From Veillonellales bacterium (GTDB lineage: Bacteria > Bacillota > Negativicutes > Veillonellales > Dialisteraceae): a stretch of DNA of 64,000 nt. Position numbers and translations under genes: made by a program. The stretch lies in NCBI GenBank assembly GCA_944390485.1, contig CALXPQ010000004.1, positions 33,985 to 97,984 of the forward strand, read 5' to 3'. Under the pieces are notes generated by a model that was given only the letters and a program-made list of their open reading frames with translations, was not told where the DNA came from and made no database searches. Shown in pieces: positions 7,553-63,843 of the stretch. Position 1 is the stretch's first letter; every line of letters begins with the position of its first letter.

Positions 7553-7630
7553 TGGTGACCCCAGAGGGATTCGAACCCCCGACACCTTGATTCGTAGTCA
7601 AGTGCTCTATCCAGACTGAGCTATGGAGCC
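7553..7630 (-). tRNA. tRNA-Arg (anticodon ACG), CCA encoded
   Basis: The reverse complement GGCTCCATAGCTCAGTCTGGATAGAGCACTTGACTACGAATCAAGGTGTCGGGGGTTCGAATCCCTCTGGGGTCACCA folds as a cloverleaf. The anticodon loop is CTACGAA. Confidence 0.9.
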
Positions 7631-7634
7631 ATAT

Positions 7635-7710
7635 TGGCAGGGGCAGAGGGACTCAAACCCCCAACCTACAGTTTTGGAGACTGTTGCTCTATCAATTGCG
7701 CTATGCCCCT
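7635..7710 (-). tRNA. tRNA-Trp (anticodon CCA), CCA encoded
   Basis: The reverse complement is AGGGGCATAGCGCAATTGATAGAGCAACAGTCTCCAAAACTGTAGGTTGGGGGTTTGAGTCCCTCTGCCCCTGCCA. The acceptor stem is AGGGGCA/TGCCCCT, the anticodon loop CTCCAAA and the discriminator G. Confidence 0.9.
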
Positions 7711-45959: not shown

Positions 45960-45967
45960 TGTTTCCG

Positions 45968-45996
45968 AAAAGGCCCGGCCTGTGCCGGGCTTTTTG
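45968..45996 (+). terminator. intrinsic terminator ending the T-box/TRAP operon
   Basis: Stem GCCCGGC (45973-45979) pairs with GCCGGGC (45984-45990), followed by TTTTT. Confidence 0.75.
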
Positions 45997-46193
45997 TGTG
46001 GAGAAATGGAAACGTTTTTTCTGCATACGGTGAGGGCCCGCATGGTGAAGGTGCCGTTTCCTCTCAGGGGGGGGAGCGGCCCCGCATCGCGGCGTAGGAA
46101 GTTGCTTCTCATCATTCTGCGACCCGCAACATCTATCCGTACGTGTCCGAAATATACGACAATTTCCATTTTGGGAGTACGAGCGCCGTGGCC

Positions 46194-46234
46194 GCGCACT
46201 TTCCTTCTTTTCCGCAAAAGAAGGGAAAGTGCGC
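46194..46234. repeat. long near-perfect hairpin (18-bp stem, 4-nt loop) in a noncoding region
   Basis: GCGCACTTTCCTTCTTTT, loop ccgc, then AAAAGAAGGGAAAGTGCGC, with one bulged G. Confidence 0.6.
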
Positions 46235-46268
46235 AAAGGAAGAAACCGCCGCCCAGTCACTGCGGCCT

Positions 46269-46352
46269 GAAATTTTGGCTGGTCACTACCCTCCGAAGAG
46301 CTCGCAGCGCTCGCTCAAACAGGCCGACCGTTGACGCTGCCAGCCAAAATTT
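46269..46352. repeat. 13-bp inverted repeat pair (AAATTTTGGCTGG / CCAGCCAAAATTT) enclosing about 57 nt
   Basis: Read directly from the sequence. The arms are at 46270-46282 and 46340-46352. Confidence 0.55.
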
Positions 46353-46447
46353 TTCCCTTCGGGTACCGGCCTCTGTTCCAATGGGCGGGGAAACCGCGCC
46401 AGTGCCGGCTTGTTCGTTTTCAAGCGGCGCGGCGGCAGGTATATTTT

Positions 46448-46570
46448 TCATTTGTTTGGATCCATTGTGTGCGATTCATAGGTGATACGGACTGTGAAGT
46501 ATGCCGGAGTGTATCCGTATTCTTCGCGAAATCTTTCATGAACAGAAAAGAAAGGAAAAAGGCGGAGCGC
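46448..46570 (-). pseudogene. probable relic of an AraC-family regulator C-terminus
   Basis: The reverse frame ends ...FFSVHERFREEYGYTPAYFTVRITYESHTMDPNK*, which resembles the second HTH of AraC/XylS proteins. Upstream, the frame degenerates and runs into the neighbouring gene. Confidence 0.3.
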
Positions 46571-46707
46571 GCCTTCCCTCACGGCACGTCCGCGTTTCCG
46601 GGAAACGGTTTCGTGTTTGCCGTCCGCGTAAATTTTGCGCTTCTGCTTCGCGCTTCGCTCATTCTGCACACGAAAAAACAGCCCGGAGGCTGCCTGTAAA
46701 AAACGGG

Positions 46708-47169
46708 TCACACGATTTCCTTGATTTTCCTGAAGTCCATGTCCATGGGGCGGATGAAAGACCACGTGGAATGCACGACCCGCCATACGCCGTCCTCTTC
46801 CTTCCGGTACAGCTCGATGCAGTTGTACTGCATGTCGAGGAGCGTCGTCTTCGCGTAGAGCTGGTATGTGAGGAGCGCCATCGTGCCGCCGAACTGCACG
46901 CGGGGCGCGCAGAAGTCGTAATGGTCGGCGAAGAGCTTGCCTTCGATGGCGTCGAGGAAGCGGCAGATTTCTTCGTACGAGTCGATGCGGTGCGGAGCCG
47001 CGCCGTCGAAATAGCTGAAATTGGTCTTCGACCAGAGCGCGCGGTATCCTGACGTGTCGCCCTGGAACCATTTGTCGAGCGCAGCCTTTTCGAGGCCGAT
47101 GATGTGCGCCGCGAGAGCTTTTTCTTCGGGAGTGTACTGCGCTTCGTAAGCGGGAATGGATGGTGTCAT
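46708..47169 (-). CDS. SnoaL-like / NTF2-fold (DUF4440-like) protein
   Basis: Length is 153 aa. The segments ...KWFQGDTSGYRALWS...VQFGGTMALLTYQLY...ELYRKEEDGVWRVVHSTWSF are typical of NTF2-like small proteins. GGAGG lies upstream. Confidence 0.6.
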   Translation of the reverse strand: MTPSIPAYEAQYTPEEKALAAHIIGLEKAALDKWFQGDTSGYRALWSKTNFSYFDGAAPHRIDSYEEICRFLDAIEGKLFADHYDFCAPRVQFGGTMALLTYQLYAKTTLLDMQYNCIELYRKEEDGVWRVVHSTWSFIRPMDMDFRKIKEIV

Positions 47170-47356
47170 GGTGTGTTCCTCCTTGCAGAATCATTTCTGT
47201 CATCATTTTCTTCTGTCAGCATACGACTTTTACGGAATTTGTCGAGTACGCAGTTTTTTTGTACCTGGTACGGGAGAGCGTACCGGAAGTTTTTCCGGAC
47301 GGTGCGGACCGGCATTACACGCAAACCGTTTTTCCCGCATAAGGAACGGGCCGCGC

Positions 47357-47384
47357 TTGCAAAATGAAGGGGCTGCGGTATAAT
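47357..47384 (+). promoter_or_regulatory. promoter of the candidate antitoxin sRNA
   Basis: TTGCAA (47357-47362), a 16-nt spacer, then TATAAT (47379-47384). Confidence 0.55.
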
Positions 47385-47390
47385 AAAAAC

Positions 47391-47452
47391 ACAAAGGTTT
47401 AAAAAGTCCCCTCGGGGAACGAAAAAGGACGAGCGGCTACTCGTCCTTTTTT
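47391..47452 (+). ncRNA. candidate type I antitoxin sRNA (RNA II-like), about 60 nt
   Basis: It starts about 7 nt after the -10 and ends at the terminator GGACGAG/CTCGTCC plus a T-run (47425-47452). It carries AGGTTTAAAAAGTCC (47395-47409), which is complementary to toxin mRNA codons 2-7. Confidence 0.55.
47395..47409. repeat. 15-nt direct repeat, copy A (AGGTTTAAAAAGTCC)
   Basis: It is identical to 47547-47561. Confidence 0.9.
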
Positions 47453-47467
47453 GTTGCTTTTATGACT

Positions 47468-47566
47468 TCAGCGGTGATTGAGCCAGCGCTCGAAAAGCGC
47501 AAGGATCATGCCGGCTAAAACGGGAGCAAGCAACGGGCTCCAAATCAGGTTTAAAAAGTCCTCCAC
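47468..47566 (-). CDS. Fst/Ldr-like type I toxin peptide (32 aa)
   Basis: It is not in the ORF track. A GTG start follows AAGGAGG by 8 nt. The product is VEDFLNLIWSPLLAPVLAGMILALFERWLNHR: one Pro-containing hydrophobic helix and a polar, basic tail, like Fst (MKDLMSLVIAPIFVGLVLEMISRVLDEEDDSRK). Confidence 0.6.
   Translation of the reverse strand: MEDFLNLIWSPLLAPVLAGMILALFERWLNHR
47547..47561. repeat. 15-nt direct repeat, copy B (AGGTTTAAAAAGTCC)
   Basis: It lies inside the toxin ORF, covering codons 2-7 on the opposite strand. Confidence 0.9.
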
Positions 47567-47700
47567 GGAGAACACCTCCTTTCTGTGGGAGGATGTTCCT
47601 ATTGTATCACAGGCTCCGTTCCGGCCGGGAGACGGCAGCGGGGCGGGGTTCCTGTATAATGGAGGAAAAGGGAGTTGTTTTCAAAAGGAGGGAGCCGGCT

Positions 47701-48519
47701 ATGGACAGAGCGGAGCGGACGCGGCGTCTGCGGGCGGTGGCGGCGGAGAATGAGCGGCTCATCGCGCAGGGCTGGTACGAGGCGGGCGGCGTGCGCCATG
47801 TGTTCTCGCCGCGCATCCGGGCGTGCGTGCTTTTCTCCGGGGAGGGGCACGGGGCGCTCATCGCGTCGGAGGGCGCGGCCCGCACGGCGGCGCGGGCGGA
47901 GATCCGCGTGGTCTCCGGGGACACGATGGCCCATGCGGAGGAGGCGGTGCTGAATTTTGCCGACGCATACACGCCGGGCGGGGCGTATCTCGCGGGGAGC
48001 GCGGCGCAGGAGGAGTGCCTCTGCCGGGAGAGCACGCTCTACGCATCGCTCACGTCGGAGGAGGCCGCGCCGATGTACGCGGCGAACCGGGCGCGGCGGG
48101 GGCCGGAGGCGGACACATTCCTCGTCACGCCGCATGCGGAGATTTTCCGCGCGCCCATGGAGGCGGAGTACGCGCTGCTCCCGGAGCCGCGGGTCTGCGC
48201 GGTCCTCACGTGCGCCGCGCCGGACTTGTCGTCGTCGTCCCGGGGCCTGCCGCCGGCGGCGGTGCGGGAGACGGTGCGGCGGCGTCTGCGGGCCCTGCTG
48301 GCGGCGGCGCACCGCATGGGGTACCGGTCGCTCACGCTCGGCGCGTGGGGCTGCGGGGTCTTCGGACACGATGCGGCGGACATGGCGGAAGATTTCCGCG
48401 CGGTGCTCATAGCGGAGCGGTGGCAGTCGCTCTTCCGGCGGATCACGTTTGCGGTGTACGCGGAGGACGCGGCGGGCCGGTACAACCTGGCGGCGTTCCG
48501 CCGCGCCTTCGGCGGCTGA
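47701..48519 (+). CDS. TIGR02452/DUF2263-type macrodomain protein (bacterial poly(ADP-ribose) glycohydrolase-like)
   Basis: VLNFADAYTPGGAYLAGSAAQEECLCRESTLY resembles the bacterial PARG signature GGG-X6-8-QEE. The start is at 47701 with an AAGGAGGG RBS. Confidence 0.7.
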   Translation: MDRAERTRRLRAVAAENERLIAQGWYEAGGVRHVFSPRIRACVLFSGEGHGALIASEGAARTAARAEIRVVSGDTMAHAEEAVLNFADAYTPGGAYLAGSAAQEECLCRESTLYASLTSEEAAPMYAANRARRGPEADTFLVTPHAEIFRAPMEAEYALLPEPRVCAVLTCAAPDLSSSSRGLPPAAVRETVRRRLRALLAAAHRMGYRSLTLGAWGCGVFGHDAADMAEDFRAVLIAERWQSLFRRITFAVYAEDAAGRYNLAAFRRAFGG

Positions 48520-62484: not shown

Positions 62485-63843
62485 ATGGAAGACGGCGGCC
62501 ACATATGGTCGGAAATTCTGATTATTCTCGTATTGATTGTATTTAACGGCATTTGCTCCATGACGGAGATCGCCGTCGTGGGCGCGCGGAAGACGAAGCT
62601 CCGCGAGATGGCGAAGAAGGGCAATAAGAAAGCGGAGTACGCGCTGAAGATCGCGGAAAATCCGGAGAACCTTTTCTCCACGATCCAGATCGGCATCACC
62701 GCCATCGGGATCCTGACGGGCATGTTCTCCGGCGCGTCCCTGGCGGTGCCGCTCGCGGCGGAGCTGCGGGAGATCCCGGCGGTCGCGCCGTACGCGCAGG
62801 GCCTGGCCATGGCCATCGTCATCTCCGCGGTGACGTACGCCACGCTCATCCTGGGCGAGCTCGCCCCGAAATGGCTGGCCATCGCCATCCCGGAGAAAGC
62901 GTCCTGTACCATCGCCAAGCCGATGCTCATGTTCTCCGCGCTGTGCCGGCCGCTCGTCATGTTCAGCACCTGGTCGACGAAGGTCGTCATCGGCCTCATC
63001 GGCATCGACATGAATAAAGAACAGCCCGTCTCGGAGGAAGAGATCCGGGTCCTGCTCCGGCAGGGCGCGCGCATGGGCACCTTCGACCAGGCGGAGCCGA
63101 TCCTCGTGGACCGGGTCTTCCAGCTGGACGACCTCACCGCGGCGGACTGCATGACCTCCCGGACGCAGCTCACGTGGATCGACATCGAGGACACGGAAGC
63201 GGAGATCTGGAAGGTCTTCGAGGAGTCGAACCATTTCCGCCTCCCCGTGGGGCAGGGCTCCCTCGACGATTTCATCGGCATCGTGGACGTGAGCGACGTG
63301 CTCATGGACAATCACCGCCATCCGGAGCACACCATTGCGGACTCCATCCGCGCCGTGCTGCGCCAGACCGTGTACATCCCCGAGACGCTCACGCTGGTGA
63401 AAGTGCTCCGCCAGTTCCACGACAAGGGCGTGCATGAAGCCATCGTCATCGACGAATACGGCGTGCTCTCCGGCCTCGTGACGCTCCACGACGTGCTGGA
63501 AGAGATCGTGGGCGACATGCCCGGCGACGCGGAGGATATGAAAGAGGAGCAGAACCGCTTCATCCGCCGGTCGGACAATTCCTGGCTCGTGGAAGGGCTG
63601 TGCAGCATCGACGATTTCCGCGAACATTTCCATCTGGAAGAAGAACTCCCCGGCGAAGCGGAAGACTACTACAAGACGCTGGGCGGATTCATCGTATACC
63701 TTCTGGGCTATATCCCGAAGGAAGCGGAGACGGTGGACTACGACCGTTTCCATTTTGAAGTACTCGACTGCGACAACCGCCGCATCGATAAAGTGCTCGT
63801 CACGGAGCGGCAGGAAGGTCCTGCCGGAAAGGAGAAGGCATGA
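62485..63843 (+). CDS. CNNM/hemolysin-family protein (DUF21 + CBS pair + CorC_HlyC)
   Basis: The N-terminal DUF21 TM domain is followed by a CBS pair (...EAIVIDEYGVLSGLVTLHDVLEEIVG) and a C-terminal CorC/HlyC transporter-associated domain. Confidence 0.85.
   Translation: MEDGGHIWSEILIILVLIVFNGICSMTEIAVVGARKTKLREMAKKGNKKAEYALKIAENPENLFSTIQIGITAIGILTGMFSGASLAVPLAAELREIPAVAPYAQGLAMAIVISAVTYATLILGELAPKWLAIAIPEKASCTIAKPMLMFSALCRPLVMFSTWSTKVVIGLIGIDMNKEQPVSEEEIRVLLRQGARMGTFDQAEPILVDRVFQLDDLTAADCMTSRTQLTWIDIEDTEAEIWKVFEESNHFRLPVGQGSLDDFIGIVDVSDVLMDNHRHPEHTIADSIRAVLRQTVYIPETLTLVKVLRQFHDKGVHEAIVIDEYGVLSGLVTLHDVLEEIVGDMPGDAEDMKEEQNRFIRRSDNSWLVEGLCSIDDFREHFHLEEELPGEAEDYYKTLGGFIVYLLGYIPKEAETVDYDRFHFEVLDCDNRRIDKVLVTERQEGPAGKEKA

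Follow-up and report, generated by a model that had tools for sequence, protein, structure and literature searches.

A 32-codon open reading frame (ORF) on the minus strand of a 64,000-nt stretch of contig CALXPQ010000004.1 (hereafter the window), together with a short transcription unit predicted to converge on it, reads as an uncalled type I toxin-antitoxin module, chromosomal and of the par (Fst/RNA II) family, and from its sequence we put the probability of this reading at about 0.85. The encoded peptide falls within the Fst/Ldr toxin family. The elements of the locus stand in the same order in every complete related module, and the two copies of a direct repeat, through which an antitoxin small RNA (sRNA) would recognize the toxin mRNA, vary together from locus to locus. 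The locus is an annotation correction, in that its toxin gene was missed by gene callers. It offers no new mechanism and adds a new member to the well-studied par/Fst family, extending a known toxin-antitoxin design to a lineage of high G+C content in which the closest genome bears the label Veillonellaceae. A module of this kind had been proposed here by a model's earlier sequence-only reading, whose claims are taken up with the results that bear on them.

The Toxin ORF and Its Peptide

The toxin ORF (47468-47566, minus strand) runs from a GTG at 47566 to a TGA at 47470-47468 and contains 32 codons and the stop. A Shine-Dalgarno (SD) sequence, AAGGAGG, was read from the sequence at 47575-47581 on the same strand, 8 nt upstream of the GTG; start, spacing, and end all lie where the sequence-only reading had put them. 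The translation, taken from a reading of positions 47100-47900, is (M/V)EDFLNLIWSPLLAPVLAGMILALFERWLNHR, and the peptide gene is present in a single copy within the window. A longer, 35-aa version in the ORF list starts at GTG 47575. This start was rejected, since its G is the last G of the SD sequence, and because of this overlap the 32-aa form is the plausible product. The SD motif A(A/G)GGAGG is kept in all relatives.

Fst/Ldr toxins are recognized by a transmembrane helix of hydrophobic residues, by a P/D/S/T-xxx-G motif, and by a charged C-terminus that a conserved Trp separates from the helix (PMC7472228). In the window peptide this signature takes the form of P15-VLA-G19, W28, and a C-terminal NHR, and it is invariant in the five members of the subfamily described below. 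The NCBIfam model NF033608 (“type I toxin-antitoxin system Fst family toxin”; cut-off 26) gave 26.0 bits with the 35-aa and 26.3 bits with the 32-aa form. The Pfam model Fst_toxin (PF13955) matched at E = 6e-6 and 26.5 bits, below its gathering score, and Ldr_toxin (PF13940) at E = 2e-4 and 21.6 bits, with a gathering score of 27. All five subfamily peptides matched both NF033608 and PF13955, and the subfamily scores on both Fst and Ldr models. Moreover, a profile built from the five peptides aligned with known Fst toxins in hhalign at 98.3% probability (E = 1.4e-14). In the PDB, the solved structures matched with E < 0.01 were PepA1 (4B19, E = 1.7e-5) and LdrD (5LBJ, E = 2.6e-3). AlphaFold2 models the peptide with two helices, residues 2-8 and 13-31, at a mean pLDDT of 85.

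A tblastn search of 72,556 plasmids returned 410 records, mostly from Staphylococcus, Enterococcus, and lactobacilli, and annotated “Fst family toxin” genes make up the majority of the best 30 of the 410. The closest plasmid toxins among the matches listed are 54-56% identical over 25-28 residues and come from Lactobacillus and Enterococcus genes. These searches agree with the Fst/Ldr layout that the sequence-only reading had recognized. That reading had compared the peptide with Fst of pAD1; the nearest relatives are instead Trp-containing Fst-like toxins, including PepA1. As a predicted membrane peptide of this family, the 32-residue product would be expected to be toxic.

The 35-aa product encoded by the longer ORF has no exact match in a collection of about 15 billion proteins, and public contigs with the identical neighbour gene have no gene call in this gap. 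Calls at related loci also depart from the real frame. The protein P0001 (L004:3001-3264) is a mis-called 87-aa ORF which spans the promoter, the 5′ untranslated region (UTR), and the SD sequence before it enters the real 32 codons, and its “KEV” residues correspond to AAGGAGGTG. P0005 joins two LdrD-like sequences head to tail.

A Direct Repeat That Would Pair the Two RNAs

The exact 15-mer AGGTTTAAAAAGTCC starts at 47395 and at 47547, and these are its only two occurrences in the 64 kb. No further copy with up to two mismatches was found in the 64 kb, where 0.01 matches are expected, and on this scale the 15-mer does not behave as the generic dispersed repeat that the sequence-only reading had named as a possible outcome. 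The downstream copy (47394-47422, plus strand; exact 15-mer at 47395-47409) would provide the 5′ pairing region of the sRNA, and the upstream copy (47547-47574, minus strand; exact 15-mer at 47547-47561) its target in the toxin mRNA. The exact copy of 15 nt had been recognized before; the pairing block itself is longer, about 28 nt between 47394-47422 and 47547-47574 with a few mismatches and G-U pairs included. With the first nucleotide of the start codon counted as 0, the duplex covers -8 to +19 and reaches codon 7.

Duplex energies were calculated with RNAduplex for each sRNA 5′ part against each mRNA 5′ region, with shuffled sRNA 5′ parts as the control. In the window, the duplex between the sRNA 5′ part and the toxin initiation region reached -40.2 kcal/mol compared to -16.2 ± 3.2 kcal/mol for the shuffled controls (z = -7.5), in line with the antisense pairing proposed from the letters. 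Cognate duplexes ranged from -31 to -42 kcal/mol, with z from -4.9 to -7.5, while non-cognate duplexes between divergent loci gave -15 to -24 kcal/mol against shuffle means of -16 to -19 kcal/mol.

When the duplexes were anchored on the start codon, both partners had changed among the loci at 17 of the 33 paired positions, and four of these 17 separate the close pair of the window and L020. The sequence of the repeat differs at each locus and follows the codons of its own toxin. The clearest case is TTTTTAAACCT in the window compared with TCAAATTCCT in L020, and the same rule holds for GTTATCGTGGA and TCCTCTGG in L024 and for GTTCGCAAACA in L006. In silico, the four co-varying modules show that a joint change in the two repeat copies is what rewrites antitoxin specificity.

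Promoters, Terminator, and Predicted Transcripts

A promoter scan of the region found four promoter-like sites, compared with 0.3 expected. Among the features it located independently is the plus-strand promoter named by the earlier reading, at 47357-47384, with TTGCAA as the -35 box (47357-47362), a 16-nt spacer, and TATAAT as the -10 box (47379-47384). It matches 10 of 12 positions and is the candidate promoter of the antitoxin sRNA. Promoters at the equivalent place are TTGCAT-16-TATAAT in L024, TTGCAA-16-TACAAT in L006, and TGGACA-17-TATAAT in L020. From the positions of this promoter and of the terminator, the predicted RNA II-like sRNA would run from 47391 to 47458 on the plus strand (about 68 nt). 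Its predicted fold has a minimum free energy of -28.3 kcal/mol (z = -4.6 against shuffled sequences) and consists of an unpaired 5′ stretch of 17 nt, a small hairpin, and the terminator hairpin.

The toxin promoter, read from the sequence, is the extended -10 element TGATACAAT at 47601-47609 on the minus strand. Its form TGnTAnAAT is kept in L020 (TGCTACAAT), L024 (TGATAAAAT), and L006 (TGGTACAAT). The predicted RNA I-like toxin mRNA would extend from 47594 to 47420 on the minus strand (about 175 nt), and at its predicted extreme 5′ end lies an anti-SD tract, UCCUCC (47588-47593), followed by a second anti-SD stretch, CUCC, at 47570-47567. The extended -10 element and both tracts had been pointed out before, and all were recovered (47609-47601, 47593-47588, and 47570-47567). 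The distance from the -10 box to the start of (U)CCUCC is 7 or 8 nt at each of the five loci compared. The predicted folds pair the UCCUCC tract with the SD sequence or with codons 2-3; the minimum-energy fold of each of the five loci has the SD sequence base-paired, and the mRNA 5′ end is paired in the window fold. Sequestration of the SD sequence and the 5′ end, of the kind assigned to the 5′-SL and 5′-UH in the par family, is thus a property of these predicted folds. The window mRNA folds at -61.1 kcal/mol (z = -3.75) and leaves the repeat core CUUUUUAAA unpaired. In both predicted RNA folds of the window, the complementary segments are single-stranded.

The two putative transcripts would end at a common bidirectional intrinsic terminator beyond the toxin stop, which was located at 47418-47455 by the promoter/terminator scan and a repeat finder. 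Its stem has 16 bp and is 94% complementary, with T-runs on the 3′ side on both strands, and its core is GGACGAG/CTCGTCC (47427-47433/47440-47446). The overlap at the terminator makes the stem-loops of both transcripts mutually complementary and gives the two RNAs a second complementary block. The sequence-only reading had described both the terminator and this block and had presented the whole as a two-site antisense architecture. Such an architecture is present; it is the standard par design (PMC7472228) and is not special to this locus. The stem is kept in L004, L005, L020, L024, and L025, and in L006 two compensatory base-pair changes turn GAG/CTC into AGG/CCT. The two candidate promoters of the window thus face each other across one terminator, as in the par family, whose defining features were taken from PMC7472228.

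Just past the main terminator on the minus strand (47406-47420), a small hairpin, GUUCCCCGAGGGGAC, followed by UUUUU resembles a second terminator. The same DNA corresponds to the small 5′ hairpin of the predicted sRNA. The counterpart of this hairpin in the mRNA is GUUCUCCGUGGAGGAC, with the GUG start codon in its loop.

Related Modules

Six matches with E up to 0.001 came from a phmmer scan of 1.84 billion representatives, and four of them were retrieved: an over-called 87-aa ORF (80% identical), a 40-aa ORF, a 32-aa ORF, and an LdrD-like fusion. Further loci came from degenerate-pattern scans for AP...G...A.F..WL..R-stop and from the contigs of the phmmer matches. The genome pattern scan yielded eight matches, seven of which were chance matches in unrelated reading frames. 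A profile that included the LdrD-like match was swamped by Escherichia coli Ldr proteins, and without this match the profile found P0003 and P0006 only. No copy of the module was found in a scan of viral contigs, and a protein homologue search with an X-padded peptide query returned no match.

Four complete modules were found besides that of the window. L025 is syntenic with the window at about 97-98% DNA identity and is probably the same species. L020 lies in a metagenome-assembled genome that carries the label “uncultured Veillonellaceae bacterium,” the module of L024 is divergent, and L006-L015 form one locus type with three sequence variants. The toxins of the divergent loci (L020, L024, and the L006 type) are 50-81% identical, and the five distinct peptides have M1, F4, L12, A14, P15, G19, M20, A23, F25, W28, L29, and R32 in common. 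The toxin ORFs show many synonymous codon changes and conservative hydrophobic swaps, with frame and motif kept.

The arrangement of ORF and repeat seen in the window by the earlier reading recurs in all of these loci. Each module opens with TGnTAnAAT, has (U)CCUCC 7-8 nt on, continues with A(A/G)GGAGG and a start codon 7-11 nt further, and then has an ORF of 31-32 codons. The terminator follows as AAAAGGAC(GAG/AGG)-6-nt loop-(CTC/CCT)GTCCTTTT. Directly on its 3′ side stands an imperfect direct copy, about 30 nt long, of the initiation region, and past this copy comes the convergent promoter (TTGCAA, TTGCAT, or TGGACA, 16-17 nt, TATAAT or TACAAT). The window and L025 differ at six positions inside the module, which fall in loops, in a promoter spacer, and in one codon (L17S); none of the six lies in the stems, promoter hexamers, SD sequence, or repeat core. 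Two annotated Fst loci were used as positive controls, L027 (L. amylovorus plasmid p1_CACC736, WP_014919638.1) and L026 (an Enterococcus faecalis plasmid). Both have the same layout as the window, and in L026 the equivalent repeat runs across the start codon.

Two independent Logan contigs with related toxins, L004 (3264-3309) and L005 (2738-2780), both end inside the terminator hairpin. These ends are probably assembly breaks at the inverted repeat which hide the antitoxin side, and the two contigs were left out of the sRNA-side comparison. L001-L003, the contigs with the identical SnoaL neighbour, are 100% identical across the intergenic region and offer no variation.

Proposed Mechanism

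By analogy with par, and from the anatomy and the co-variation described above, the module may work as follows. On the minus strand, a weak promoter of the extended -10 type would drive an mRNA of about 175 nt encoding a single-helix membrane peptide of 32 residues, and the UCCUCC tract at the mRNA 5′ end would fold back on the ribosome-binding region and keep it closed. The near-consensus plus-strand promoter would drive a second RNA, about 68 nt long, running toward the same terminator from the other side. Just past the terminator, the template of this sRNA is a direct DNA copy of the toxin initiation region with the opposite strand read, so that some 28 nt of its 5′ part could base-pair with the toxin mRNA, in a region that begins 8 nt ahead of the start codon and extends to codon 7, and the terminator hairpins would also be mutually complementary. 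The pairing would block ribosome loading and so confine toxin synthesis to times of sRNA shortage.

Alternative Explanations and Points Against the Module

A different account would take the repeat to be a chance or dispersed repeat, or an inert partial duplication of the toxin 5′ end, with no functional antisense RNA and the ORF perhaps a lone small-protein gene. A simple duplication can give a direct repeat, the support for the sRNA comes from in silico work, and the region has no Rfam match. Against this account, the 15-mer has its two sites alone in 64 kb compared with an expectation of 0.01; a copy stands at the same place in four divergent modules, directly adjoined by a good convergent promoter; alterations in this copy follow the codons of the toxin itself; and known Fst loci are arranged alike. 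We consider an inert repeat very unlikely. Nor do we favour the idea that the plus-strand transcript from 47357 is a terminator-controlled leader of the PARG-like gene (47701-48519, plus strand), whose read-through would merely be antisense to the toxin. The PARG-like gene does lie on the same strand, 245 nt past the terminator, and the promoter-like motif GGGGTTCCTGTATAAT (47645-47660) resembles the sRNA promoter region. However, the PARG gene has a -10-like box of its own, and L020, L024, and L006 keep a toxin-facing sRNA-like unit amid unrelated flanking genes. The unit therefore travels with the toxin and not with PARG, and a leader function appears slightly more improbable still.

Least probable of the alternatives is a module of the Ldr/Rdl or hok-like type, with an antisense RNA opposite the mRNA 5′ end, a leader ORF, and 3′ processing. 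The score of 21.6 bits on Pfam Ldr_toxin and the match to LdrD in the PDB would fit such a module, as would a diderm host, which this organism may be. Yet the Ldr score is lower than its gathering score and lower than the Fst scores, the promoter scan found no antisense promoter opposite the 5′ UTR, and no leader ORF was seen. Moreover, an sRNA that converges at the 3′ end and pairs through a 5′ block derived from a repeat belongs to the par design, with which the Ldr type is contrasted in PMC7472228 and PMC2887945. Several observations also weigh against the par-type module that we prefer. The Pfam Fst_toxin score falls short of the gathering score of 36, and the toxin promoter has no recognisable -35 box in our own reading of the sequence. 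No YUNR U-turn is present on either strand of the window terminator loop (UAGCCG/CGGCUA) or in the loops of the relatives; in the par family this motif starts the kissing complex, and not all homologues have it (PMC7472228). Rfam gave no relevant match in 47000-48000 even at E up to 10, while the control Fst locus L027 hits RF02848 (RefB11) at 55.6 bits with a gathering score of 54. Just four independent complete modules stand behind the comparison, and the co-variation of the repeat copies could partly reflect gene conversion between them instead of selection on pairing.

Genomic Context and Host

The window has a G+C content of 64.7%, which bears out the high-GC part of the earlier description of the host as a high-GC, apparently diderm Firmicute; the diderm part is supported indirectly, by the Veillonellaceae label of L020 and by L024. 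The gene adjoining the L024 module (L024:1675-3228) encodes a protein with a YadA-like outer-membrane anchor domain, and its sequence indicates a host with an outer membrane. The CNNM/CBS/CorC gene of the window (62485-63843) matches L020:1-1247 with 93% identity at the protein and 88% at the DNA level, and because of this the window organism is taken to be a close relative of the Veillonellaceae-labelled genome. In L020, the module lies about 2.5 kb from the CNNM gene, beyond an IS30-like transposase and a ferritin gene. In the window, a TauE gene adjoins CNNM and no module is found there. The site of the module thus varies between close relatives.

In the window and in L025, the module lies between a SnoaL-like gene and the PARG-like gene. 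The L020 module is flanked by ferritin and the IS30-like transposase on one side and by a type I restriction R subunit (HsdR) on the other. The L006-type module adjoins a McrBC-like pair, with a symporter among the flanking genes and an AIPR gene in some variants. Defence genes thus stand directly beside relatives, namely the R subunit (L020:4130-7321) and the DUF2357/PDDEXK_7 and AAA_5 genes (L006:3210-6099), and the AIPR abortive-infection gene is found at L008/L010:1-750 in some L006-type variants. The different sites in close relatives, and the placement near restriction or abortive-infection genes in two of the relatives, may hint at mobility or at a defence-linked role.

In the window, the toxin promoter and the -10-like box of PARG are divergent and about 50 nt apart. 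The segment 47645-47660, which lies upstream of the PARG-like gene, shares 81% identity with the spacer and -10 box of the antitoxin promoter (47369-47384, GGGGCTGCGGTATAAT). Between the DctM and SnoaL-like genes lies a segment of about 750 nt (45960-46707) with no convincing ORF and no Rfam match, although some public gene calls place an 87-aa gene without a Pfam hit here. Within this segment, 46071-46530 is just 92% identical to L025, compared with 97-98% for the flanking DNA. The only Rfam and ARAGORN matches in the window are the adjacent genes for tRNA-Arg(ACG) and tRNA-Trp(CCA) on the minus strand at 7553-7710.

Comparison With Known Systems

Fst-like toxins have been reported from Enterococcus, Lactobacillus, Staphylococcus, Streptococcus, Listeriaceae, and Clostridiales (PMC7472228; PMC2887945), and a survey found Fst in one phylum and six families (PMC5367252). 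In the full-text literature we found no published type I system for Negativicutes or Veillonellaceae; a prior listing in supplementary host tables is possible. The module may be the first described par/Fst type I lineage in Negativicutes, forming a small subfamily that is seldom called and whose basic tail is minimal (WL[ND]xR-stop), and placing the Gram-positive, 3′-convergent, repeat-based RNA design in an outer-membrane host, a proposal to which we give somewhat less than an even chance.

The Ldr toxins of Ldr/Rdl in Escherichia coli belong to the same superfamily, with AP(V)IAG...WLNKR compared with APVLAG...WLNHR in the window. The Ldr antitoxin, however, lies opposite the mRNA 5′ end and the regulation is hok-like (PMC7472228; PMC2887945), whereas the sRNA of the window would converge at the 3′ end. 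Among solved structures the best match is PepA1, the toxin of SprA1/SprA1AS in Staphylococcus aureus, which has APV..G..A.F..WL..R in common with the window peptide. PepA1 carries the staphylococcal PxxxGC cysteine, where the window peptide has GM instead, and no similarity was detectable between the SprA1/SprA1AS RNAs and the RNAs predicted here. The SprA1AS antitoxin overlaps the mRNA 3′ end and yet acts through a separate complementary region (PMC8594479).

The par locus of pAD1 (E. faecalis; RNA I/RNA II) and, judged from its sequence, the window locus have convergent promoters and a common bidirectional intrinsic terminator (PMC7472228). In both, direct DNA repeats make the sRNA 5′ part complementary to the toxin initiation region (PMC7472228), intramolecular structure, predicted in the case of the window, closes the SD sequence and the 5′ end, and the toxin has about 33 residues with PxxxG. 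One 5′ tract of the window may, by analogy, serve as both the 5′-UH and the 5′-SL of pAD1 par. The repeat sequences themselves are poorly conserved in the par family (PMC7472228). The pairing region is one continuous block of about 28 nt in the window, compared with the two repeats DRa and DRb in pAD1, and the U-turn motif of the pAD1 terminator loop was not found in the window loop. The window toxin has the conserved Trp of the family, where pAD1 Fst has Val, and its tail is very short and basic (NHR), in contrast to the long and acidic tail of pAD1 Fst. Furthermore, the window module is chromosomal in a genome of 65% G+C, while pAD1 par is on a plasmid.

The Lpt-like Fst toxins of Lactobacillus and Enterococcus plasmids have LALFExWLxHR in common with the window. 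Unlike the window module, their loci are plasmid-borne in low-GC Bacilli, and the charged tail that they encode, DHRDNNHK, is longer. RF02848 is hit by L027 and not by the window; the layout of L027 is almost superimposable on that of the window, with an anti-SD tract UUCCUCC, then GAGGAGG and an ATG, and, past the terminator, a single 15-nt exact repeat of codons 2-6 followed by a convergent TATAAT.

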